DNA of 64,000 nucleotides from Candidatus Bathyarchaeota archaeon. GTDB lineage: Archaea; Thermoproteota; Bathyarchaeia; Bathyarchaeales; Bathycorpusculaceae. The stretch is from the NCBI GenBank assembly GCA_963717465.1, contig OY970340.1, forward strand, positions 2,816,001 through 2,880,000. The letters are read 5' to 3'. The notes beneath the pieces were generated by a model. That model did no database searches, was not told the DNA's origin, and was given only the letters and a program-made list of their open reading frames with translations. The position numbers and the translations under genes are program-made. Each line of letters opens with the position of its first letter. Position 1 is the first letter of the stretch. Shown one piece after another: positions 2,371-31,742 of this stretch.

Positions 2371-3152
2371 TTAAAATAATTTTTCTATTCCTTTAAAATT
2401 CCAATCCTCGTTAGAGTATTTCTCCTTATATAGGACTTGAGCTGATTCCCACTCATTTATAGTTAGCTCTCCCCCACAAGTTTAATATTCAGAGTTCGCT
2501 CATAACTCTTTTTTAAAACGTCTTTGACTTCTTCCATTTCAATCTCTCTTCCAAGCTCTTTTCTTAGAGTAGTTACACAATGCTTGAAGCCTGTCAATTG
2601 ACCATATTCACCTTTTGGAGGTCTTAGAACTTTACTAAGCATCGACAAATCTACGTCAACCATTAAAGTTCCATGATGTAAAATTTTGCCCCACCGCAAA
2701 CGCTTCTGAGCGTTCCCTGAAATCTTCATTCCATTTACGAACACATGGTTTGGCGGGATTAACTTTGCAGCGAGCCCGAGACTTTGCAACCCCTCAATCA
2801 AGCCTCTGCAGAGAACTTCACAGGATTCTAGGAAATCATGTGGGATAAACGGATGACGATTCCCGTTTACAAATAGCGAGTAATTAAGATTTTTAATATC
2901 GTGATAAACTGCTCCTCCTCCTGAAGGCCTCCTTACGATTGCTATCTTATTCGCCTTGCACTCACGAACATATACGACTTTATTCACTTTTTCGTGATAC
3001 CCAAGGACAACTGCATTTCGGTTCGTCCAAAACCGAAAAGTATTAGGAACTTGATCAACTGCGTGAGCTTGTGAAATTGCCTCCTCGATCGCCAGGTTCA
3101 TGTATGGGTCATCTGGAATATCAACATCAAGCAGTCTCCATTCCTGCGCCAT
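2371..3152 (-). CDS. lplA: Lipoate-protein ligase A family; C-terminus frameshifted in a G-run near 2471
   Basis: RRPSGGGAVYHD, KISGNAQ and HHGT motifs; the shifted frame continues ELTINEWESAQVLYKEKYSNEDWNFKG. Confidence 0.9.
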
Positions 3153-3196: not shown

Positions 3197-4931
3197 TTAC
3201 ATGTGTATTTTTCTTTTTTCTAAGGGCATTAAGTTTTTGAGGTATTCTTCAGCTTTTGGCACCATTTCACGCTCGAGTTTGGCTTTCTTTTCCTCTGTTA
3301 ACTGCTCTTTCTTTTTCCTTTTAGTCTTCTTTGAAGCTATAAGCCGATCAATGCGTAATATGCAATTTGCCGCCTCGGTTGCTGATTTTAACGCTTGGAT
3401 CTTAACGCCTGCAGGTTCATATACACCTAACAAAAACATATTTCCAACGCATGTATTAAGAACGTCGATGCCTGACCACAAATTGCCTTCGCTATGAAGC
3501 GCCCGCAACTCAGTCAAGACATCAATGGGATGCAAACCCGCACTACTGGCTAGTACTTCTGGAATTACTTCTAATGCCTCTGCAAAGGCCTGGATGGCCA
3601 ACTGCTCTCGCCCTTGAATAGTTCTTGCGTAGCTGTTAAGTTGGCGAGCTATTTCCATCTCCGCTGACCCACCACCAGCAATAATTGCGCCATCTTCCCG
3701 AGCCCTTCTAATGACTTGAAAGGCATCCTGAAGTGCGTGACCAGCTTCATCAATAGCAATTTCAGTGGCACCTCGAATCATCACATTCACAACATTCGAT
3801 TTTCCAGTCGAATTAACAAACATGTATTCTTTACTGCCAATCTTCTCATAGTGCACGAGGTCAGCTCTACCCAAAGCTTCTGGATTTAAATCCTCTAAAT
3901 CTAAGACAAGTCGTGCACCGGTTGCTCCTGCAATTCCGTCGATATCAGGCTGAAGAACTCTCTTGCAACACAGTATTCCCTCTTTTGCGAGAAATGTATC
4001 AAAATTATCACTGACACCCCTGCCACAGATGATCACGTTAGCTCCAGACTTTTTTATTTTCTCTGCAATTTCGCGTTCTAAATTTTTTTCTTCGTTAACG
4101 AATTCTTTTATTTGATTTAGCCCAGAAATTTGGATTTTAGTGTCGAGAAATGAGGTGGAATATTTTGCAATAGGCATTACCTCAAGGGGGAACATTAGAA
4201 TTGCGATTTTTGCGTTCGAAATGAATTTCGGCATATCGTCTCTAAAGTATGGATAGCCCACTATGGCACCATTAAACAGGTAACTATCCGATAAAGAGCC
4301 TCCTACTTGCTTAATTATCTTGATTTCATTGATATCGATGTAATGTTTTTCAGTTTTCTCTTCAGCAACAGTTGATATGGCGTTAACTGCAATTTCGGCT
4401 AACATTCTTTTAACGTCGCTGAACATGTTGCCACTCATAGCGGTCAGGGCAACTTTTAACAAAACTTCTTTACTGTCTTCTGGATTTATTGGAACAGAAA
4501 TTTTTCCGAGCGCTTCAATAGCGAGCGACATCGCTTTTTCATATCCATTAACGATTGTGATTGGATGCACACCCTTGTCAACTAAACGTTGGGCTTTTTC
4601 TAAAAACTCATTTGCCAACACTACCGCTGTTGTTGTGCCGTCACCTACCTCCTCATTTACAGCCTTTGCAACTTCAACCATTATTTTGATAACAGGATGA
4701 GAAACATGTATGTTTTTTAGTATAGTTACACAATCGTTTGTAACGATGATCTCGTCCTTTCTGGAGAGCATTTTATCCATACCCATCGGACCTAGCGAAT
4801 GACTTAACGACTTCGGCGACAAGTTTAGCTACCATGATGTTATTGTTTAAAACATCTTTCCCTTTTGCTCTTTTTGCGCCTTTCATAGCTTTTGTTTGAT
4901 CTGCCAGATGATTATTTGAAGGCTTATGCAT
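3197..4931 (-). CDS. Thermosome (group II chaperonin) subunit paralogue; 1-nt frameshift near 4799
   Basis: SLGPMGMDKML, GDGTTT and ILRID motifs; the upstream frame from ATG 4931 supplies the N-terminus (...GKDVLNNNIMVAKLVAEVVKS). Confidence 0.9.
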
Positions 4932-4975: not shown

Positions 4976-6880
4976 CTATGTGTGAGAGAGTTTTTCGTTA
5001 AAATATTTTTTTACCGTTAGATATTTCTCAAGGTTTCTATGTGGCAAGTCGATGGAGTAGGCAAATTCTTTCTTGAAATTCTCTGCGACTGTAAGTTCTA
5101 AATATCCCGCTTGATTTGAAATTTTGCTCATCGTATCCCTAGCTTCTTTGGATATTAGTGCAGATTTAGCGCCGGACAAAGCTGTGTTGCCAACAAACTC
5201 AACCTTTTCTAACGGTATATCAGGTATAAGTCCGATGAAGAGCGCACTCTCAGCGCGAATATGACTTCCAAAAGCTCCAGCTATACAGAATCTATTTATG
5301 TCTGCATCATCGATATGCTTAGCCTTCATGAGAATTGAGGTGCCAGCATGCATTGCTGCTTTGGCCAATTGAACCTCCTTAATATCCCGTTGTGTTATCG
5401 TTATGTCATCGGCTATTCCTGTTTCATTGCTCCAAGCCACCACGAACTGCGGCTCTTCATCAATCATTTTTAATCTAGGAGTAGAAAGTTGCATAAATCG
5501 GCCCCTATTATCAATTATTTCTGCTTTGAGTAACTCAGCTATAAGATCAATAATACCTGACCCACAAATTCCAGTAGGGGAGTCACCGCCAATTGTCTCA
5601 TATTTAACTTCATATGTTTTAGGGTCAATGTGAACACTTTCGATAGCACCTGTATAGGCTTTCATTCCATGCTTTATGTGTGCTCCTTCGAATGCTGGTC
5701 CAGCTGCACAAGAGCAAGATAACAAGCCCATATTATCAGAAACAAAGACTTCACCATTAGTCCCAATATCTGCAACTATTTCCACAGCATTTGAGTTGAG
5801 AATTCCAGTTGAATAAACGTCTCCAATGGCATCAGCTCCCACGTATCCAGCTATGACAGGCAAAACATGAATATTTCCGCCCATGTTCATTTTTAATCCG
5901 GTTAATTCATTATTCTTCAACTCTCTTGATTGCTTTATTACCGGCGGAAATGGACTCAAGGACAGATATTTTGAATGTAATCCTAAAAAGAAATGATGCA
6001 TAACTGTGTTTCCAGTTACTGCTAATTCATATATGTAATTTGGATTAACTCCCGAATCATTACAAGCTTGCATTATAGTTGAATTTATACCTTTAATGGA
6101 TAACCTCTGCATCGTTCCCAGAGATTCATCGCTTTCCAAAGTAAAATCAAGCCGTGTAATTATGTCCTCTCCATAGACTATCTGCGGATTTTCAACTGAT
6201 CCTTCACCGACAGTTTTACCCGTTTTGAGGTCAACTAAATATCCAGCTATTTTGGAAGTACCTATATCGACTGCAAATCCGTACATTTGCCCAGTTGTAT
6301 CACCTGGTTCAACTGCGAGTATTTGCTCATCATTCCATACGGCTACTGTTGCACTCCAGTCAGCGTCTCTTAAAATACCGGATAGTATCTTCAAGAGATC
6401 ATTTCCAATACTAAGGTTTCTGTAATCACAAACTTCCCTTAAACAATCCAGAACTCTCTCAAAATCTGACCTTACATCTTGAAGTGTTGGTTTTGGAATA
6501 ACGATATGCAATTTCTTGACTAAAGGTTCTAGACTTACAGGTCTCTCAAGTCCAAGCACTTGTATCTTTCGCACATTAACTCTACTTTCTGGAGGAATTT
6601 CTACAACGAGATTTCCAAATATTTTAGTACAACAAGCCAGTCTGTATCCTTCATTGATTTTATCTTCTGAAAAATGTTCTCTCTCACCATTTGTAGCCTT
6701 ACTTACCATAGTTTGATCTCTTAGAATTATCGTGCATTTCCTGCAGTTGCCTTTTCCGCCACATTCTGACCGCAAGCCAACTCCTTTGCATTTGGCTGCT
6801 TCTAAAATTGTAATTCCAGGACCAACAGATACTTTTCGACCTTCTGGTTCAAATTGAATAATTACTTTTTTCTCCCCCAA
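4976..6880 (-). CDS. ASKHA-domain reductive activator of corrinoid proteins (RACo/AcsV-like) with N-terminal 2Fe-2S domain
   Basis: CGGKGNCRKC and RLAC 2Fe-2S motifs; DIGTS, DIGTNGE, AAGPAFEG, GICGSG, AGAFGS, GNTAL. Confidence 0.92.
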   Translation of the reverse strand: MGEKKVIIQFEPEGRKVSVGPGITILEAAKCKGVGLRSECGGKGNCRKCTIILRDQTMVSKATNGEREHFSEDKINEGYRLACCTKIFGNLVVEIPPESRVNVRKIQVLGLERPVSLEPLVKKLHIVIPKPTLQDVRSDFERVLDCLREVCDYRNLSIGNDLLKILSGILRDADWSATVAVWNDEQILAVEPGDTTGQMYGFAVDIGTSKIAGYLVDLKTGKTVGEGSVENPQIVYGEDIITRLDFTLESDESLGTMQRLSIKGINSTIMQACNDSGVNPNYIYELAVTGNTVMHHFFLGLHSKYLSLSPFPPVIKQSRELKNNELTGLKMNMGGNIHVLPVIAGYVGADAIGDVYSTGILNSNAVEIVADIGTNGEVFVSDNMGLLSCSCAAGPAFEGAHIKHGMKAYTGAIESVHIDPKTYEVKYETIGGDSPTGICGSGIIDLIAELLKAEIIDNRGRFMQLSTPRLKMIDEEPQFVVAWSNETGIADDITITQRDIKEVQLAKAAMHAGTSILMKAKHIDDADINRFCIAGAFGSHIRAESALFIGLIPDIPLEKVEFVGNTALSGAKSALISKEARDTMSKISNQAGYLELTVAENFKKEFAYSIDLPHRNLEKYLTVKKYFNEKLSHT

Positions 6881-6986
6881 TTAATCAAATTATCCACGTC
6901 ACATTTTTTTAACGTGCGTAATCTGTGTCAATTATACTTGAAAGAAAAGAGGAAACATGGGCTATTTAACAAGATATACACTTGGT

Positions 6987-8225
6987 TTATGTTGGGTACT
7001 TGCCTACTTTCTTGCTAGTCCTTGCAGTGAACTCTAAATCATTTAATTGCGTGAATTGATCTGGGACTATCGCATAGAAAGTCTTTTTAGCTTTGAGCAA
7101 CTCCTTGAAACATGCACCAAGATCTTTTTCGATTTCTTCTTTTTTGCCTTCTAAGATAATCTTCCAGTCAGAACACATTCCCGTAATCATGTCATAATCG
7201 GTTGCGCATTTTATACACCAGTCGTATGGTTGCTCAGCATCACCCGTGCCAGCAATGTCATTAATCGAACGATCGCATGCATAGGTCTTCATGAATTCGG
7301 TGTCACCAACAGGCGGCCAACCACCCGTATACCAAGCTATCTGTAATAGCCGTGATCCAACTGCCTTCTTCACTTGCTGCGCGTATGGAACCCAGAACTG
7401 TCGCACCTCTTCCAAGGTGTGACCCATGGGACAACCTCAGCTCATCATAAAGTCTTTTCCGTCTGGTCTAGTAAAATTGTTGCAAAATAGCGCTCTGTCT
7501 ATAACACTGGTTGTTGAAGCTTGCAAAACTTTGTGGGCAAACGTTGGGTTTTTTCTAATATCCTTTACCAGGGACTTCCAGCCCCTGATCCTAAAGCTAT
7601 TCATGTAGGGCTCTTCTCAGAACGATATAACAAACGGATAATAGTCACCGATAAGCTTATTTGCCATTTTTACATGCCATGAACTTGCCCACCAAATACC
7701 ATCTGAAGCAGGATTAGGCATATTATCTATGAATGTCTGTAGATCCTCCTCTTCGTGGCCAGCCCTGATAAAGTGTTCAACCTCCATTGGCGCCGCATCA
7801 GGAAACATAGTCCATGTCCTAGTAAGTTGGTCCTCAGCATATGTATGTGCATATGTGCCGAAATAAAGGTCGTCTTCGAAGTGTACTGACCATGTCATTG
7901 CTGCAATAAGCGCTAACTGTGGATACTGCATTAAATCCGAACCATGCAACGCACCACTGAATAAGTCTAAAGCATGCGCGTTAGTATTTGGAAATTGACC
8001 TAGAAAACTTGGGACTCTGTCGTGCGGTTCTCCCTTGGTCATTGCTAGCCATCTTTCCATAGGTGTAAATTTCCCGTTCTTCGGAATCTCATGTAGCTTT
8101 TCTGCTAGCCTCTCAATCATTCGCTCCTCAGGTGCAGTAATAGCGAAATTATAGTTTGGCCCCATATTATTGTAGTCAGGCAACATTCCCGAAACTTCTT
8201 TAGGATTTAATTTCAAACCTGGCAT
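6987..8225 (-). CDS. URO-D/MtaA-fold protein, 412 aa, with two in-frame TGA codons (putative Sec203 and Sec263)
   Basis: ORFs 7617-8225 and 6987-7427 share a frame and are joined by an open segment interrupted only by TGA at 7617-7619 and 7437-7439; URO-D-family features FTPMERW..GEPHDRVP, RGWKSLVKDIRKNPTFAHKVL, EEVRQFWVPY. Confidence 0.8.
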
Positions 8226-8244: not shown

Positions 8245-8982
8245 TTATTTTTTGGCTCGTTCTTCTTTTAGGATTCTCATTAGTTCTTCGGTCTTCTTCA
8301 AGCCGTCGAGTGCGTCTAAACCAAATGCCCATCCGCGATGTTGACAGTATTCCTCTGTCATGCCCCAGCCTCCGCCTATCAGCTTCACATTATCTAAAAT
8401 GCCCCTTTCCTTTAGCCCTTCTTTGATGGGTTCTATCTGAGCTTTAGCGGCACCTAAACAAGCTGAAGCTGCCACTATATCTGCATTCGCAGCTGCATCA
8501 ACAAATTTTTTTGCTGGAACATTAACACCGAGATCGTTGACTGCAAAACCAGCACTCTGAAACATTGCAATAACTATATTCTTGCCTATGTCATGAACAT
8601 CTCCTTCAACAGTTCCAATTATGACATTTCCAGTTCCAGACTTTCCAGCTTTTATGAGCGGTTTAACTACCTCCATTACGCTTGAAGCTGCATCAGCTGC
8701 CAAAATAAGGTCCGCTGTCATGTATACACCATGACCTGCAGCGAATAGTTCACCAACAGCCCGCAAACCAGGAGTCAAACCTTTCAGCAGTATTTCAGGC
8801 GCTTCTACGTTAGCGTCTAGCAGAGCCTTGACAGCTTTCACCGCAGCCGTATCGTTACATTCGATAATTGCAAGTGCTACATCAAGAAACTTTGGTTCAA
8901 CTGTGCGCTTAATGTCTGCTATAACCTCCTCTTTCGATTTCGACTTCATATCCCATATTTTCTCTCTACCTTCAAATGTCAT
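8245..8982 (-). CDS. Corrinoid (B12-binding) methyl-carrier protein, MtaC/MttC family
   Basis: B12-cap domain plus EGDVHDIGKNIV (DxHxxG), DLGVNVP and GG motifs. Confidence 0.95.
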   Translation of the reverse strand: MTFEGREKIWDMKSKSKEEVIADIKRTVEPKFLDVALAIIECNDTAAVKAVKALLDANVEAPEILLKGLTPGLRAVGELFAAGHGVYMTADLILAADAASSVMEVVKPLIKAGKSGTGNVIIGTVEGDVHDIGKNIVIAMFQSAGFAVNDLGVNVPAKKFVDAAANADIVAASACLGAAKAQIEPIKEGLKERGILDNVKLIGGGWGMTEEYCQHRGWAFGLDALDGLKKTEELMRILKEERAKK

Positions 8983-9074
8983 ACACTTATTCTCCGCGAC
9001 AAAGCATGCACGCACTTTTTGCTTAATCTTTAATGCTTAGTGAGTGCACTTTCAAAAAAAACTTGTTTTTCCAG

Positions 9075-9852: not shown

Positions 9853-10311
9853 CTAGAAGAATTGTTCTTTTTCTTCATATTGCTCTTTGAACCAAGCCAG
9901 CGCTGGTTCACCCTTTAGAAGATTTTTAACTTCGGCGTCGAGGTTTGACGGCTTAATTAGCAGCATCCAATATTTTCCATAAGGATCCGTTTGAATAAGT
10001 CTTACGCCTGGAGGTTTAGTTGTATCCCAATTAACTTCTACGATTGAACCAGAAACAGGAGCAATCAGATCTTCTACTACTTTTTTGGACATCAGCACAC
10101 CCATCTTTTTTCCTTGCTCTACATTTTCGCCCTCGGCTGGAAGTGTTACTTTGTATATACCAGTAATGTATGCTTTCTTACCCGCAGAAGCTCTTGCAAA
10201 GATTTCGTCAATTCCGACTCTCACCTTCCCGTCCGCCTCTACTTTTACCCACATGTGTTCTTTCGTGTAGTATATTTCTTCTTTAAAGTCTACTTTTCCG
10301 AGCTTAACCAT
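9853..10311 (-). CDS. Glycine cleavage H-like lipoyl-carrier protein
   Basis: YYTKEHMWVK, VRVGID, MSKKVVEDLIAPVSGSIVEVN (Lys at the lipoyl position), DPYG..W. Confidence 0.9.
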   Translation of the reverse strand: MVKLGKVDFKEEIYYTKEHMWVKVEADGKVRVGIDEIFARASAGKKAYITGIYKVTLPAEGENVEQGKKMGVLMSKKVVEDLIAPVSGSIVEVNWDTTKPPGVRLIQTDPYGKYWMLLIKPSNLDAEVKNLLKGEPALAWFKEQYEEKEQFF

Positions 10312-10331: not shown

Positions 10332-10673
10332 TTAAAATATAACCTGTAACTTTGCTAACTCCATCAATGGACCATCAATCGTAACCTTGCCCATTTGTGC
10401 TGCTGCAATAGGCGTTAATTTTCCATCGAATATATCTTTTAAGGTGTCTGTCGATTGAGTGAGGGTAACGATGGCATCCTCCTTCCTAATAGCCTTCTCT
10501 ACTTTTCCGACCTCGCCCTTCATAGTTATTGTAAATAAGTATCCGACGTTTATGTCCGAGAACACCAATTGAAAAGTTTTACCCCAATTCTCTAACATTT
10601 CGGCATTTTCATTAATTCTTTTTGTCATCTCTTTTACCAGGTCTTCAGCTAGTTTTTCCTTATTTTCTGACAT
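10332..10673 (-). CDS. SCP2 sterol/lipid-binding domain protein
   Basis: DTLKDIFDGKLTPIAAAQMGKVTIDG pattern. Confidence 0.85.
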   Translation of the reverse strand: MSENKEKLAEDLVKEMTKRINENAEMLENWGKTFQLVFSDINVGYLFTITMKGEVGKVEKAIRKEDAIVTLTQSTDTLKDIFDGKLTPIAAAQMGKVTIDGPLMELAKLQVIF

Positions 10674-13755: not shown

Positions 13756-14298
13756 TCATCCTATCGGCATTTTTGCAAATTCTGAGAGCATGTGCTTGGG
13801 ATACTCGTTATGTTGAGTTCTAAACAACCAATCTTTTTTGGCTAAGTCGTAGTCCCAGACCTTAATTCCTCTTCGGAAGCGTCTTTCAAAGCGGATCCAC
13901 ATGTACCTGTTTAACTTTTCACTTGCATCTATTTGACTTCTGGAAGGGGCAGAGTCTAAAATTATTTGCCCAGTTTTCATTTGACTAAAAACTTTGCATC
14001 CTGTTGAAAATTTTTCGGATTCATAAGGAAAGGCTTGGCATATCAAAGGTCTTTTGCTATATATCAGGCAATCATTTTTATCGTCTACATAAGGACAAAT
14101 AACCGTGTTCAATTGATAGAAAATAATTACATCGGGTTTGCTCATTCCAATTGCAACAGAAGGAGAAACAATATCTCTTGGAAATAGTTTGACTTCTTTC
14201 TCTGTAATAACCAGCCCCTTTTTGACGCCTCTAATGTCTTCCCAAAGATTTCGACAACAGGTACCACATTTCTTGCATTGAAATACTTTGCTCATCAC
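13756..14298 (-). CDS. YkgJ/FliB-family cysteine-cluster protein
   Basis: FQCKKCGTCC...CPY...C.IY..RPLICQAFPY. Confidence 0.85.
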   Translation of the reverse strand: MMSKVFQCKKCGTCCRNLWEDIRGVKKGLVITEKEVKLFPRDIVSPSVAIGMSKPDVIIFYQLNTVICPYVDDKNDCLIYSKRPLICQAFPYESEKFSTGCKVFSQMKTGQIILDSAPSRSQIDASEKLNRYMWIRFERRFRRGIKVWDYDLAKKDWLFRTQHNEYPKHMLSEFAKMPIG

Positions 14299-14324
14299 TT
14301 TTCAAACCAGAGTAAGTACGCTGA

Positions 14325-15212
14325 CTAGCTAACTTTTTTTATGACTGGTGTCACATCCACTTGATGGTATTCAAAGCCAAGTTCTTTTATTGGAAACCCC
14401 ATCGCAATGCCTAACAGTTGCTGGTAGTAAAGTACAGGCATGTTCAGGTTTTCGCCAAACTTTTCGTTTATGTAGGGTTGTATTACATCGTATTGATAGA
14501 AACAGGATGGACAAAGAAGTACAATGCAATCCGCTCCAGCTTGTTGAATTTGTACTAGTTTTTCTCTGGCCATGCTCAAGGCTGAGTTCTCATCAGCACT
14601 GGCAATCCCAGCTCCACAACAAAGCAATTTCGATTTATACTGAACAGTTTCCGCTCCGGTAGCCTCAGTTATTCTATCCAAAATCAAAGGTTTTTTTGAA
14701 TTATCAACACACAAAAGTTCGCTAGGTCTAAGAATATGGCAACCGTAATGGACTGCGACTTTTAAGCCATTTAATGGTTTAATCACGCTGTCTTTAATCT
14801 TATCAGCGCCGATATCCTCTGAAAAAACTTGGAGGACGTGCTTAATTTCAATATTACCCTTGAATTCCTTCCCTACTGAAGATAATATATTGTTTGCTTG
14901 CCTCCTAAGTTTTTCATGTTTCTTTAAATTAGTGTTTGTAGTCTTTAATGTTTCAAAGCAACCGTTACATACAGTCAATATATCTGTCCCCATGCTCTCA
15001 GCTATACAGATGTTTCTTGCAGCAAGTGAGAGATATGTCGTATAATCTATAGAAGGAATACTGAACGGGTTTGGACAACATCCAGCACCTTTTAGAGGCA
15101 ATAGCTCCACTCCAAACTTGCTCATTTGTTTTCTAGTTATGGCCTCCACGCAAATATGAGGAAGTGTAGATGACATCAAACATCCAGGGAAGAACGCATA
15201 CTTAGATGCCAC
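14325..15212 (-). CDS. hdrB: Heterodisulfide reductase subunit B
   Basis: Two CCG domains: FPGC, GCCP, CNGC, HYGCH, CCGAG, CPSC. Confidence 0.93.
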   Translation of the reverse strand: MASKYAFFPGCLMSSTLPHICVEAITRKQMSKFGVELLPLKGAGCCPNPFSIPSIDYTTYLSLAARNICIAESMGTDILTVCNGCFETLKTTNTNLKKHEKLRRQANNILSSVGKEFKGNIEIKHVLQVFSEDIGADKIKDSVIKPLNGLKVAVHYGCHILRPSELLCVDNSKKPLILDRITEATGAETVQYKSKLLCCGAGIASADENSALSMAREKLVQIQQAGADCIVLLCPSCFYQYDVIQPYINEKFGENLNMPVLYYQQLLGIAMGFPIKELGFEYHQVDVTPVIKKVS

Positions 15213-15214
15213 AA

Positions 15215-15736
15215 TTAACCCTCCTTTATTTCATAGCCGACAAGTCGATCAAACCCAGTGGTCCTCAAAATCTTTCGAATTTCCACTACATTGGGAGTTA
15301 GAGGCTCTGGTAAACACAATTCAGACCGTATTTTCATTGTTGCAGGGGATGGTTTTACTATAAGACCACTTTCAATTAGAGTAACTGCCTCAGCCTTTGG
15401 ACCATCAGGAATGTTCTTTAAAGATTTAACTGCTCTATTCTTAAACGCTTCAAGAATAGTTGGCACATCGACTTTTTTTGGGCACCCCTCTGAACAATTA
15501 TAACACGACATACAGAACCAAATTTTTTCGTTTTTTATCGTCAGCTTTTCGAAACCTAAATATGCGTCCTCAAGAAATTTTGTGGGATTAAACCCTTCAA
15601 TTAACTTAGCTGAAGGACAACCACGTGTACAAGCTCCACATTTGCTGCATAAGATCAGTGTTTCTCCTCCAGGAAATTTATCTAAATACAATTTAAATTC
15701 TGGATTGATCTTCTTTACGATTTCTTCCTTGACCAT
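15215..15736 (-). CDS. hdrC: Heterodisulfide reductase subunit C
   Basis: Two CxxCxxCxxxCP motifs; directly upstream of hdrB. Confidence 0.9.
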   Translation of the reverse strand: MVKEEIVKKINPEFKLYLDKFPGGETLILCSKCGACTRGCPSAKLIEGFNPTKFLEDAYLGFEKLTIKNEKIWFCMSCYNCSEGCPKKVDVPTILEAFKNRAVKSLKNIPDGPKAEAVTLIESGLIVKPSPATMKIRSELCLPEPLTPNVVEIRKILRTTGFDRLVGYEIKEG

Positions 15737-15798
15737 AATATTCCTCAAGCAATTATAGCAATCTTAAACTAACGCGCTATAACATGCCTTTCAAAGAA

Positions 15799-28790: not shown

Positions 28791-29672
28791 TTGAAAGTTG
28801 AACCTGAATGCGCGTCATGCTTACTTTCTAGAGCAACCGCTGAAACTTACCAAGCAACTACTAATCCAGCGTTAAGATTTAGGTGTTTAGCGGAAGTTGT
28901 TAAACTCTTAAATCGTGAGTTTAAATCGACTACTGTTCCCGCTGACATAGGAACTAAAAGAGATCGAATAATCAAGACATTAACTGGTAACGATGATCCA
29001 TATAAACACAGTAAGAAATTGAGCAACGAGAAAGCATTGAAACTGCTTCCAAGTGCAAAAAAATTTGTGGCAACGGGTGGAAATCAGCAGGAGAGATTCA
29101 AGAAGGCTTGTCTTTGCGCGATCGTGGGAAACATAATGGAATTTGATATTCCCGGCCATAAATTTGCGTTAAATGACCTTTCGAAAATTTTACGAACCGC
29201 AGCTCGAGATTTAGTTATTGATGATACGGATAAGGCTTACGAGTTAGCAAAGAAGGCTCAAAGTGTTCTTTATTTGGCTGATAATGCTGGAGAAATCGTT
29301 TTTGATACTCTACTTGTTGAACAATTGAAAAATATGGGTTTAAAAGTAACTTATGTCGTTAAGGGTGGACCAATCATTAACGATGCAACACTGGAAGATG
29401 TTGAAATTTCAGGCATGGACAAAATTGCAGATGAGATATCAACAACTGGGACTGATGCAGTCGGATTCTTAAAAGGTGAAGTCTCCCGTGAATTTGTAGA
29501 GTCGTACGATAAAGCTGAATTAGTTTTCGCAAAGGGCATGGGATACGCAGAAACGCTTACTGAATTCAAACTCTCAAAGCCTAATTTCTTATTGTTCAGG
29601 ACTAAGTGTGTTCCAGTAGCAAATTATTTTGCTGCTCCAAGAGAAAAGAACATTGCTAAGCTGATGACTTGA
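28791..29672 (+). CDS. DUF89/ARMT1-like metal-dependent phosphatase
   Basis: ECASCL, DNAGEIVFD, INDAT, KGMGY.E. Confidence 0.9.
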   Translation: MKVEPECASCLLSRATAETYQATTNPALRFRCLAEVVKLLNREFKSTTVPADIGTKRDRIIKTLTGNDDPYKHSKKLSNEKALKLLPSAKKFVATGGNQQERFKKACLCAIVGNIMEFDIPGHKFALNDLSKILRTAARDLVIDDTDKAYELAKKAQSVLYLADNAGEIVFDTLLVEQLKNMGLKVTYVVKGGPIINDATLEDVEISGMDKIADEISTTGTDAVGFLKGEVSREFVESYDKAELVFAKGMGYAETLTEFKLSKPNFLLFRTKCVPVANYFAAPREKNIAKLMT

Positions 29673-29675
29673 CAA

Positions 29676-31742
29676 ATGAATTTGCCAAACCTTGCTTTCA
29701 CTAAGGAAGCTTTTTCGAGTTTCGATGAAGTGGTCAGCAAGGAATGGCTAATAACTAACGGCCTTGGCAGCTACGCCTCATCGACCGTTTTGGGTTTGAA
29801 CACGAGGAAGTATCATGGTTTACTGGTTGCAGCATTAAATCCGCCGGGTGAACGCACTGTATGCTTATCCAAGCTGGACGAAGACATCCTGTTAGATGAT
29901 AAAGTTTTCAGGCTAGGAACCAATGAGTTTCAAGATGCAATTTACCCCCAAGGTTATAAAATGTTAAGCGAATTCTCGATAGCGCCTTTCCCAACTTACA
30001 CTTACAACGCTGAAGACATCAACGTTAAGAAAACAATTTTTATGCAAAGAAACAAGAACTCTGTTTCAGTAATTTACAAAATCATCAACAAAAACAGTTC
30101 AGAAGCGGCAGTTAGAATTTACCCGGTTTTTACCTGCAGGCACTTCCATAGCGTTATTAACCGCTGGAATAACCATTTGGATTTTACGCAGGCAAGCAAG
30201 GAAAAAGAGGTTCAAGTTATTTTTCATCCACACGAAACAGCCGTTTTATGCCATGCAACTGACGGCAATTTTGTCGAAAAAATTAACCCTGTAGAAAAAT
30301 TAGTTTATCGCTTTGAAGCTCAGAGGGGTGAAGCAAGCGTTGATAATTGTTTTCAGCCAGGTTATTTCGAACTTGACATTGCTGCAAAAACTGAAAAAGA
30401 ATTCGCGGTAGTGGCAACGGCGAATCGTTCAAGTCAAGAGGCTCGAGTAATTATTGACGCTTTTGGCAATACGTTTGAGAATGTCCAGGATTCGCTTAAA
30501 CGTGAACTGCAACTACAAGAGAATTTGCTTACTACTTTTTACAGTTCTCATTCTCAAGTGCCTGTTAGCGACTGGTTAAACTGGATTCTATTAGCAGCAG
30601 ACTCATTCATAGTTAAAAGCATCAGTGGCAAGCCAGCAGTTATAGCTGGATATCAATGGTTCGAGCCGTGGGGTAGGGATACTTTCATTTCCTTACCTGG
30701 CCTTCTGTTGGTTACGGGAAGATTCCAGACTGCGAAGAATATTCTTTCAAACTATGTTCAATACTGCAAAGATGGGCTTATCCCGAACTTCATATCTGAT
30801 AGGTCTGGAGAACCAGCGTACAACACTGTCGACGCCACGCTATGGTACATAAACGCTGTTTTCCAATACCTAAAATATACTGGGAACTTTAAATTCGTCA
30901 AAGAAGAATTATGGGAAAAACTGAAGGCAATAATTGCTTGCCACGAGAAAGGAACATTGTTTAATATTCACGTGGATACTGACGGTTTATTGATGCATGG
31001 TCCACGTCTTACATGGATGGATGCTTTTGTTGACAGTGAAGCAATAACGCCTAGAAGCGGAAAAGCTGTTGATATTCAAGCATTATGGTACAATGCTCTA
31101 CGGATAATGGAGTTTCTTGCCGCCAAGTTTTCTGAGCCAAATTTAGCTAAAAAATATGCTGAAATGGCCGATAAAACTCGCGAGAATTTTAACAGCAAAT
31201 TTTGGAATGCCCAAAAAAAATGCTTATTTGATGTTCTTGAGGAGAGTGGGGTTGACGATTCGATTCGTCCTAACCAGATTTTCTCTCTGTCTTTAGATTT
31301 TCCGGTGCTTGACATAGAAAAGGGCAGGCAGGTTGTTAATCTGGTCAAGCGTGAACTTGTAACGGTTTACGGCTTGCGAACTCTGGCTACAAGCGACAGG
31401 AAGTTTGTAGGCAAGTACGCTGGAGACAGGCGAAGCAGGGATACTGCTTACCATAACGGTACAATTTGGCCTTGGCTTATAGGTCCTTTTGTTTCAGCTT
31501 TCTTTAAAGTTAAAGGGCACGAAAAGTCAACACGAAAATTTGCTTGTGAAAATTTTTTGTTGCCTTTGTTTAATGCAACTGTTCATCAGGGGGGTTTAGG
31601 AACGATAAATGAAATTTACGATGGCTCGGCACCGTATAATCCTCAGGGTTGCATTGCGCAAGCTTGGAGCGTGGCTGAACCGCTACGTGCATATTTGGAG
31701 GGCGTGCTTGAAGTTAAACCTGAATTTTCGAAGATGTTTTAG
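29676..31742 (+). CDS. Glycogen debranching enzyme (amylo-alpha-1,6-glucosidase)
   Basis: EWLITNGLG, WGRDTFISLPG, TWMDA, YHNGTIWPW, QAWSVAE. Confidence 0.93.
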   Translation: MNLPNLAFTKEAFSSFDEVVSKEWLITNGLGSYASSTVLGLNTRKYHGLLVAALNPPGERTVCLSKLDEDILLDDKVFRLGTNEFQDAIYPQGYKMLSEFSIAPFPTYTYNAEDINVKKTIFMQRNKNSVSVIYKIINKNSSEAAVRIYPVFTCRHFHSVINRWNNHLDFTQASKEKEVQVIFHPHETAVLCHATDGNFVEKINPVEKLVYRFEAQRGEASVDNCFQPGYFELDIAAKTEKEFAVVATANRSSQEARVIIDAFGNTFENVQDSLKRELQLQENLLTTFYSSHSQVPVSDWLNWILLAADSFIVKSISGKPAVIAGYQWFEPWGRDTFISLPGLLLVTGRFQTAKNILSNYVQYCKDGLIPNFISDRSGEPAYNTVDATLWYINAVFQYLKYTGNFKFVKEELWEKLKAIIACHEKGTLFNIHVDTDGLLMHGPRLTWMDAFVDSEAITPRSGKAVDIQALWYNALRIMEFLAAKFSEPNLAKKYAEMADKTRENFNSKFWNAQKKCLFDVLEESGVDDSIRPNQIFSLSLDFPVLDIEKGRQVVNLVKRELVTVYGLRTLATSDRKFVGKYAGDRRSRDTAYHNGTIWPWLIGPFVSAFFKVKGHEKSTRKFACENFLLPLFNATVHQGGLGTINEIYDGSAPYNPQGCIAQAWSVAEPLRAYLEGVLEVKPEFSKMF

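Follow-up and report, generated by a model that had tools for sequence, protein, structure and literature searches.

We analysed a window of 64,000 nucleotides (nt) from the genome of a Candidatus Bathyarchaeota archaeon (contig OY970340.1, positions 2,816,001 to 2,880,000). The reverse strand of this window most likely carries one intact gene for a corrinoid-dependent methyltransferase of the URO-D/MtaA superfamily with two selenocysteine (Sec) residues, encoded by UGA at both conserved cysteines of the family. Judged from its sequence, the protein most likely represents a new selenoprotein family, recognised by the classic logic of Sec/Cys pairs. The window is part of a single-contig genome of 3,053,889 bases, which was estimated to be 88% complete and 1% contaminated. 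Feature positions are listed in Table 1.

The first-pass annotation of this stretch had claimed one frame of 412 codons, interrupted by two TGAs alone. Translation from 8225 to 6987 on the reverse strand revealed exactly this: TGA at codons 203 and 263 are the only internal stops, and the frame terminates with TAA at 6987-6989. A mechanical search yields two open reading frames (ORFs) here, 7617..8225 with 202 amino acids (aa) and 6987..7427 with 146 aa. Gene callers cut the gene into three pieces of 146, 63 and 55 aa, all 100% identical to the read-through protein, which we refer to as the query. The ATG at 8225 has a strong ribosome-binding site, GGAGGTGA, 8 nt before it. The stretch between the TGAs had been described as family-like, and IRGWKSLVKDIRKNPTFAHKVL indeed aligns with the family consensus xRGxxxFxxDxRKNPExAxxxL. 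Family motifs run through the whole frame, and the C-terminal motif GKYP is retained. Codon usage was scored as log-odds per codon. Codons 1-202 and codons 264-412 both reached 0.185, and the two other frames of each segment gave -0.60 to -0.75. As a reference, 1032 long ORFs of the genome had a mean of 0.219 (SD 0.044). The 149 codons after the second TGA are free of stops, for which the chance is 2.4e-4 at the local base composition. The frame past the TGAs still looks coding.

Homologues were collected by a HMMER scan of 1.84 billion representative proteins. Just 38 matches were obtained at E<=0.001, the top three being the gene's own pieces. The remaining matches had at most 39% local identity, and the full-length ones 24-33%. 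The methyltransferase family is small. A word-indexed homologue search with the read-through protein returned 1395 candidates, none of them significant. The host genome contains nine matches to the read-through protein including itself, six of which are intact or nearly intact paralogs with 24-31% identity over the matched parts. An alignment of homologues had been proposed as the check on the two TGAs, and it places both at conserved cysteines. All six paralogs have Cys at both columns. Among 19 homologues from the large scan, the column of codon 203 holds Cys in 18 and Ala in one, and the column of codon 263 holds Cys in 16, Ala in two and Pro in one. The columns of the query's seven other cysteines are not conserved. 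The TGAs occupy the family's only two well-conserved Cys columns, and at U203 and at U263 an in-frame UGA stands opposite a conserved Cys, as in other Sec/Cys pairs of selenoproteins.

Two stops in one frame could also stem from recent decay. Two independent TGY to TGA mutations would then have struck a Cys-type paralog, and translation would end at codon 203. The family does decay in the host genome, where one copy is truncated and another has five internal stops. Furthermore, no orthologue is at hand to show conservation of the TGAs, and no SECIS (Sec insertion sequence) element of a known kind was found. However, both stops are TGA and lie exactly on the two conserved Cys columns. In the gene, 47 codons are one substitution away from TGA, with the two sites counted as former TGY. 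The chance that a random pair of nonsense changes falls exactly on both columns is then about 1 in 1081. The 412 codons contain no other stops or frameshifts, the coding score is the same before the first and past the second TGA, and excess RNA structure is found specifically past both TGAs. The frame is also whole after long divergence from the nearest paralogs, with which the protein shares 25-31% identity. Since identity to the closest paralog is only about 30%, we infer that the methyltransferase has long been on a separate evolutionary path, on which a frame ending at codon 203 would be unlikely to remain whole. We regard a pseudogene as quite improbable.

Real pseudogenes of the family can be seen in the two decayed copies of the host genome, L007 and L008, at genome positions 1126743-1127450 (+) and 1359169-1359876 (-). 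One is truncated (about 235 aa), and the other has two TGA, two TAG and one TAA inside the match.

A tRNA(UCA) near the gene had been noted in the first-pass annotation. ARAGORN and Rfam identified it as tRNA-Sec, which lies on the same strand, 5.4 kb upstream of the methyltransferase gene. The genome has two tRNA-Sec genes, two fused PSTK-SelB genes, a SepSecS gene (6.2e-120) and a SelD gene with U at residue 18. An HdrA-FlpD fusion carries two TGAs, at the classic DCSIU and CNWU positions, and eleven paralogous molybdopterin oxidoreductases of about 770 aa have a TGA near residue 150. Thus, as far as genes show, the archaeal Sec system of the host is complete, and intact genes for other selenoproteins are present. 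Examples of the Sec-gene loci are L009:778-3093 (-), L011:721-3051 (+) and L010:921-3485 (-).

The genome looks as if it carries a duplicated Sec decoding set. The tRNA-Sec gene outside the window is located at genome positions 845693-845779 (+), scores 71.8 bits and directly adjoins SepSecS; the tRNA-Sec gene of the window adjoins a PSTK-SelB gene. The two tRNA-Sec genes differ by a compensated acceptor-stem pair, one extra base and a few substitutions. The other PSTK-SelB fusion lies at genome positions 952706-954940 (+). Both fusions have 730-744 aa and are 54% identical; the bacterial SelB winged-helix domain (PF09107) was not found. At the positions of GHVDHGKT and DLPGH in the other copy, the fusion in the window has GHCKHGKT and EMPGN. 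Because its GTPase motifs are altered, the window copy could be a non-standard GTPase and, from sequence, may not function as a normal one.

Genes for tRNA-Sec are rare in Bathyarchaeia. In a sample of the class, 3 of 151 genomes had a tRNA-Sec above the Rfam cut-off. Among 61 relatives including the host there were two, and the one outside the host was borderline with 47.2 bits. None of the 36 other genomes of the same genus had one. In each of the two carriers of the class besides the host, a SelD gene containing a single in-frame TGA lies near the tRNA-Sec gene. Ordinary termination at TGA also occurs in the host genome. Several TGA-bridged ORF pairs were tried as selenoprotein candidates and rejected, among them the following three. 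An ARMT1-like phosphatase ORF and a glycogen-debranching (GDE) ORF at 28791-31742 (+) share one frame with a single TGA, and they look like two adjacent genes and no selenoprotein because the domains are complete on either side of the TGA. An aminotransferase bridged to DUF1015 and a pair of ABC permeases are likewise adjacent genes and not selenoproteins.

RNA structure was analysed in the 66 nt past the UGAs. At 13 UGAs of the HdrA, FlpD and molybdopterin-enzyme genes, fold energies were -17.1 to -27.4 kcal/mol. Random windows of the genome had a mean of -9.7 kcal/mol (SD 4.1, 5th percentile -16.8 kcal/mol), and 167 Cys codons in the same Sec genes had a mean of -11.7 (Mann-Whitney p 1.2e-8, with paralogs that are not independent). 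The two sites of the methyltransferase gene gave -16.7 (U203) and -20.3 (U263) kcal/mol. The 12 homologous Cys sites in the six paralogs ranged from -8.6 to -15.9 and were all weaker than both UGA sites. Synonymous codons were then resampled, keeping the amino-acid sequence fixed and redrawing the codons from genome usage. Redraws folded as well as the native sequence in 12 of 1000 cases for U203 and in 35 of 1000 for U263. When 34 windows were placed every ten codons, just those at codons 205 (0.005) and 265 (0.02) fell under 0.05, and the other 32 were at 0.115 or above. Only one of the 12 Cys-paralog sites was under 0.05. Among the other Sec sites tested, five of seven were under this value (HdrA 0/500, FlpD 2/500 and three molybdopterin genes with 1, 8 and 17 of 500), and one molybdopterin gene was above it (91/500). 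Past both UGAs of the methyltransferase gene, structure is probably under selection at the RNA level, as it is past most Sec codons of this genome.

The hairpin past U263 begins at the same offset as at the HdrA, FlpD and molybdopterin-enzyme sites, namely 9 nt from the U of the UGA. In the 11 molybdopterin paralogs a consensus hairpin of 11 pairs was found, and four of the pairs show compensatory double changes. These in-ORF hairpins may act as the recoding signal. Bacterial SECIS elements are likewise stem-loops within the ORF shortly past the UGA, a layout shared by U263 and the HdrA, FlpD and molybdopterin sites. In contrast to the bacterial system, the host is an archaeon without PF09107, no Rfam SECIS model matched, and the U203 hairpin lies at +30. 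The eukaryotic Sec redefinition element (SRE) is also an in-ORF stem-loop soon after the UGA. The hairpin pattern was not replicated in the two further genomes of the class that have a tRNA-Sec. HdrA-FlpD homologues were found in one of them and lack a TGA, and the SelD with one TGA in both corresponds to the site that has no hairpin in the host.

The apical loops are GGA and GGAA in the methyltransferase hairpins and (U)AGGA(U) in the molybdopterin hairpins. A UUAGGAU string also occurs past U203, in a reading frame that differs from that of the molybdopterin genes; this candidate likeness may be due to chance.

Hairpins past stop codons can promote read-through in general. Together with the lack of a recognised SECIS, this would fit an insertion of Cys or Trp at the UGAs by a near-cognate tRNA, or a regulatory mixture of truncated and full-length protein. 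Against such a use of standard amino acids stand the full Sec system of the genome and the UGAs at classic Sec positions of HdrA, FlpD, SelD and the molybdopterin enzymes. Most of these Sec sites carry a similar downstream hairpin, and TGA also ends ordinary genes of the host. We consider read-through with a standard amino acid very improbable. Rather, both UGAs would be decoded as Sec by the archaeal Sec machinery of the genome, aided by the in-ORF hairpins and without a recognisable SECIS in the 3' untranslated region (UTR).

Several results weigh against a functional two-Sec gene. The coding score of codons 204-262 was lower, at 0.091 (n=59). The U203 hairpin is the weaker case of the two; it is modest and distant, starting at +30, falls at the 9.6th percentile of Cys-codon controls and ranks 36th among 391 windows of the gene. 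The Sec site of SelD is an exception with -9.2 kcal/mol and no excess structure in the resampling (278/500), and therefore hairpins are not universal at the Sec codons of this genome. No SECIS of a described type accompanies the methyltransferase gene. Rfam SECIS models gave no match at the gathering score in the whole 64-kb window, and none at E<=10 around the methyltransferase and four other selenoprotein loci. Our own scan of the 3' region of the gene for AUGA..GA elements (Asgard/eukaryote-like) revealed none; it gave two weak matches alone, 1.5 and 2.4 kb downstream and inside other genes. The same scan 3' of the molybdopterin-enzyme genes found no recurrent element. The fold of the 3'-UTR of the methyltransferase gene is no more stable than that of shuffled sequence (z -0.72). 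An orthologue of the two-TGA gene was found in none of 60 relatives at E<=1e-20 and in none of 400 further genomes from the class at E<=1e-25. Metagenomes were scanned with peptide patterns, where none of 19 pattern matches was confirmed as an orthologue, and with a degenerate DNA pattern over UGA-203, which had no match. The query itself matches Pfam PF01208 (URO-D) with 15.7 bits (E 0.0077), which is below the cut-off of 23.9, and it matches no NCBIfam family, including TIGR01463 and NF040654. Finally, just one assembly is known to contain the gene. Two public sequencing runs contain 0.10 and 0.08 of the sampled words, and each yields one 151-base contig on the gene; these contigs correspond to 7205-7355 and 7921-8071, and neither extends over a TGA. 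The runs listed as matching included no RNA run.

A hairpin in the 3'-UTR, at about 6887-6926, was considered as a SECIS of a known type and rejected. Its stability is ordinary (z -0.72), and its internal loop, CG/GA, is neither GAA_A nor AUGA_GA. Oligo-T tracts are located within about 20-35 nt past the stops of selenoprotein genes. The sole match outside the host at E<=1e-25 in the 400 genomes of the class is a TGA-free Cys homologue with 32% identity over residues 4-242, in a metagenome-assembled genome (MAG) counted as the same genus as the host.

With a single assembly and public contigs that miss both TGAs, a sequencing or assembly error has to be weighed, by which the true codons would be TGC or TGT and the protein an ordinary Cys paralog. 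Two identical errors at functionally equivalent codons are unlikely, and local hairpins would not be expected in a Cys paralog. Moreover, a separate contig of 919 bases from another source, which may derive from the same sample, encodes a 63-aa piece that ends exactly at residue 202. An error at both codons is extremely improbable in our judgement.

The URO-D/MtaA fold that had been assigned from the sequence is borne out by profile and structure comparisons, the latter based on a predicted model. Thirteen of 20 aligned family members match PF01208 at E<=0.1 (best 4.3e-38), and TIGR01463 (mtaA_cmuA) is matched by nine of 20 homologues (best 1.4e-28). A profile of the family found MtaA of Methanosarcina mazei in the PDB (4ay7, E 1.6e-21). 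An AlphaFold2 model, computed from the 20-sequence alignment, had a mean per-residue confidence (pLDDT) of 81.5 and a predicted template-modelling score (pTM) of 0.85. Low confidence was confined to residues 301-330, an insertion peculiar to the query. The best PDB neighbours in Foldseek searches were UROD or MtaA structures without exception, at probability 1.0 and target-normalised template-modelling (TM) scores of 0.61-0.72. A search of the ESM Atlas with the Cys paralog P0005 returned generic URO-D clusters only.

Barrels of this kind bear their active sites at the C-terminal strand ends, the catalytic face. The first-pass annotation had located both UGAs at strand ends, and the predicted model agrees. 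U203 is the last residue but one of strand 198-204, and U263 that of strand 258-264; the two strands are consecutive, and both residues lie at C-terminal ends. The loss of the HxC zinc motif of MtaA, which had also been proposed, was confirmed. The LHICGN strand of MtaA corresponds to LLQIAWYT (residues 293-300) in the query, without His or Cys. The third MtaA ligand, the cysteine of the C-terminal GCG, aligns with an Asp (D401 of alignment A2) that is invariant in the closer homologues, and the His-x-Cys...Cys zinc site of MtaA and MtbA is therefore not found in the query. The Cys/Sec pair of the family aligns with a Met (GGMEGP) and an Ala (IAIAD) of MtaA. In most homologues the second cysteine is part of a WCD motif; the Asp is replaced by Gly in the query, and a Cys follows two residues on, giving U-G-C. 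From the model, Sec203, Sec263 and perhaps Cys265 most likely form the substrate-activating site. The Sec pair would stand where the family has Cys-Cys, replacing the zinc site of MtaA. One option is a metal site with soft ligands, at which a thiol, selenol or ether substrate would be activated, in a role like that of the zinc sites of MtaA/MtaB-type enzymes. Another option is a redox-active selenenyl pair. The first-pass annotation had suggested Sec as a metal ligand or as the nucleophile that accepts the methyl group, and either role is conceivable here.

The gene had been assigned to a corrinoid methyltransferase operon, and it does sit between genes for a corrinoid protein and a RACo-type activase. 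The upstream corrinoid gene and the methyltransferase start are 19 nt apart, and the activase gene follows 106 nt downstream. Like MtaA and MtbA, the query is thus encoded with a cognate corrinoid protein. A B12-binding gene is also found immediately upstream in five of five annotated homologue loci (L002, L003, L033, L035 and L038). By analogy with the MtaABC, Mto and Sdm systems, for which models are described (PMC8065059, PMC8630106, PMC10989822, PMC11097638), the corrinoid protein encoded upstream would dock with the methyltransferase, and a methyl group would move to or from cobalt. The methyl partner may be a small-molecule or protein-bound heteroatom. The RACo-type activase would re-reduce oxidised corrinoid and restore Co(I).

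Several substrates can be envisaged. Candidates are methoxylated aromatics, as for methyltransferase 1 (MT1) enzymes, and the GcvH-like protein that co-occurs with the family, whose dihydrolipoyl arm would serve as a thiol like that of coenzyme M (CoM). Methyl-sulfur or methyl-selenium compounds (Sdm/Mlp-like) are a third candidate, given the Sec genes 3-5 kb away. Around Cys homologues of the family a neighbourhood recurs that comprises a TrmB-type regulator, the corrinoid protein, the URO-D-like methyltransferase, a GcvH-like protein and a lipoate ligase. One or two proteins of the radical-SAM type, one bearing a BATS domain, also belong to it, and in some cases so does a thermosome subunit. 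The neighbourhood was seen at L033, L035 and L038 (contigs of Bathyarchaeia MAGs) and at L002, L003 and L006 of the host genome. Judged from these gene orders, the neighbourhood hints at a lipoyl-protein partner for the family. We can only tentatively put forward the full picture of a member of the Bathyarchaeia with a duplicated Sec system and recoding by in-ORF hairpins, in which a corrinoid methyltransferase with an Se,Se(,S) site would possibly act on a thiol or selenol, for instance the dihydrolipoyl arm of the GcvH-like protein.

The same gene might instead serve selenium scavenging, like SdmABC or type 1 mlp systems. The enzyme would demethylate methyl-selenides, and what its Sec/Cys site binds would be the substrate or product containing selenium, not a metal. 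Comparable systems of a URO-D-type methyltransferase, a corrinoid protein and an activase have been linked to the use of methyl-selenides by Methanococcus and, in many anaerobes, to Sec genes (PMC11097638, PMC10418091), and the operon lies 3-5 kb from the tRNA-Sec and PSTK-SelB genes. However, the neighbours of the Cys homologues are genes for GcvH, lipoate ligase and radical-SAM proteins. Apart from the borderline case, none of 60 relatives has a tRNA-Sec over the cut-off, and none has a close homologue of the query; the proximity may be due to chance. We consider a scavenging role unlikely.

MtaA (4ay7/4ay8) shares with the query the URO-D-type barrel (target-normalised TM 0.70-0.72) and an adjacent corrinoid gene. 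In contrast to MtaA, the query is about 70 residues longer and has an N-terminal extension. Going by their descriptions, the SdmABC system of Methanococcus and the type 1 mlp clusters have a similar set of corrinoid protein, URO-D-type methyltransferase and reductive activase, and a physical or regulatory link to selenium metabolism as seen here. Unlike the query, the SdmABC and Mlp enzymes are not reported to contain Sec in the available text. Mlps are defined by more than 25% identity to characterised CoM methyltransferases. The MT1 enzymes of O-demethylation, MtvB and MtoB, are encoded with a corrinoid protein and an activase, as the query is, and have a similar size (412-454 aa here), a likeness of size and operon type alone. 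MtoB1 and MtoB2 are given as 48 and 47 kDa (PMC8630106), and genes for a 'bacterial-type MT1' are described in 31 of 297 Bathyarchaeia MAGs (PMC10989822). MtgB of Bathyarchaeia was rejected as the family of the query. It has about 300 aa and is described as without homology to known methyltransferases (PMC10989822).

Methanogen selenoproteins include FdhA, FwdB and HesB-like proteins. In the known archaeal selenoproteins (SelD, HdrA, FrhD/VhuD, FrhA/VhuU, Prx-like, AhpF-N and DsbA-like), Sec takes the place of a conserved Cys, as proposed for the query, and PSTK, SepSecS and SelB form the machinery, as here. Two Sec residues per polypeptide are predicted for the query and for the HdrA-FlpD fusion of the same genome. 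That the family is absent among described archaeal selenoproteins, as the first-pass annotation had noted, agrees with the literature searched. The Asgard selenoproteome is described as seven families, none of them a methyltransferase (PMC11227280), and the available text of a 2026 review of prokaryotic selenoproteomes (PMC13188914) has no URO-D/MtaA-type entry. None was found in the main text of the BSepDB paper either, nor was a Sec-containing URO-D or MtaA protein found in the wider literature searched, supplementary tables aside. In titles and abstracts no report of Sec use in Bathyarchaeia was found; the literature searched describes it for methanogens and Asgard archaea. Archaeal SECIS elements are stated to lie in 3' UTRs (PMC13188914), and in-ORF hairpins in an archaeon, a side observation of this work, could be still more unusual than the methyltransferase itself.

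If the two-Sec gene is real, it would define a new selenoprotein family, a corrinoid-dependent methyltransferase with two active-site Sec residues. To our knowledge, selenoproteins are few and nearly all of them are redox enzymes. Sec chemistry would then be widened to methyl transfer or to a zinc-type activation of substrates. The gene and its six Cys paralogs in one cell would provide a natural Sec/Cys pair for asking what the benefit of selenium is. In-ORF hairpins without a recognisable 3'-UTR SECIS would make the way in which archaeal SelB finds its codon directly testable. Since gene callers split this two-TGA gene into three pieces, similar hidden selenoproteins have probably been overlooked in archaeal MAGs.

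Table 1. Features of the window, with positions counted from its first base. All lie on the reverse strand; hairpin offsets are counted from the U of the respective UGA.
Feature	Position	Strand	Details
Lipoate-protein ligase, LplA catalytic domain	2463..3152	-	recurs in homologue neighbourhoods
Thermosome subunit	3197-4822	-	
RACo/AcsV-type corrinoid reductive activase	4976..6880	-	RACo_C_ter 4.1e-92; AcsV 1.4e-142, below its cut-off
Methyltransferase gene, predicted URO-D/MtaA fold, 412 codons	6987..8225	-	frame, ribosome-binding site, fold
Nested hairpin, candidate recoding signal	7391..7430	-	CCCA...UGGG enclosing GUC-CACCUU-GGAA-GAGGUG-GAC; starts 9 nt past U of UGA-263
UGA codon 263, probably read as Sec	7437..7439	-	FMMS-U-GC-PMG; aligns with family WCD cysteine; local motif U-G-C
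10-bp hairpin, candidate recoding signal	7567..7589	-	AUCAGGGGCU-GGA-AGUCCCUGGU; 30-52 nt past U of UGA-203
UGA codon 203, probably read as Sec	7617..7619	-	FVISF-U-EEPY; aligns with family GSxC cysteine
Cognate corrinoid (B12-binding) protein	8245..9015	-	PF02310, PF02607; TIGR02370 4.8e-38, below its cut-off
GcvH-like lipoyl-carrier protein	9853..10311	-	recurs beside Cys homologues of the methyltransferase
SCP2 protein	10332-10673	-	
Fused PSTK-SelB gene, 730 aa, one of two in the genome	11363..13555	-	KTI12, TIGR03574; GTP_EFTU, aSelB_III, TIGR00475
tRNA-Sec, anticodon TCA, one of two in the genome	13638..13725	-	61.8 bits against Rfam tRNA-Sec, gathering score 47
CxxCxxCC protein	13756-14298	-	directly upstream of tRNA-Sec
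HdrC and HdrB	14325-15748	-	upstream of tRNA-Sec

GcvH has been suggested as a disulfide carrier for HdrB in archaea without CoM and coenzyme B (CoB) (PMC9723716). In the window, the genes for HdrC, HdrB and the CxxCxxCC protein (13756-15748) share the strand with the GcvH-like and lipoate-ligase genes. This layout is compatible with a redox module of the lipoyl-disulfide/Hdr type.

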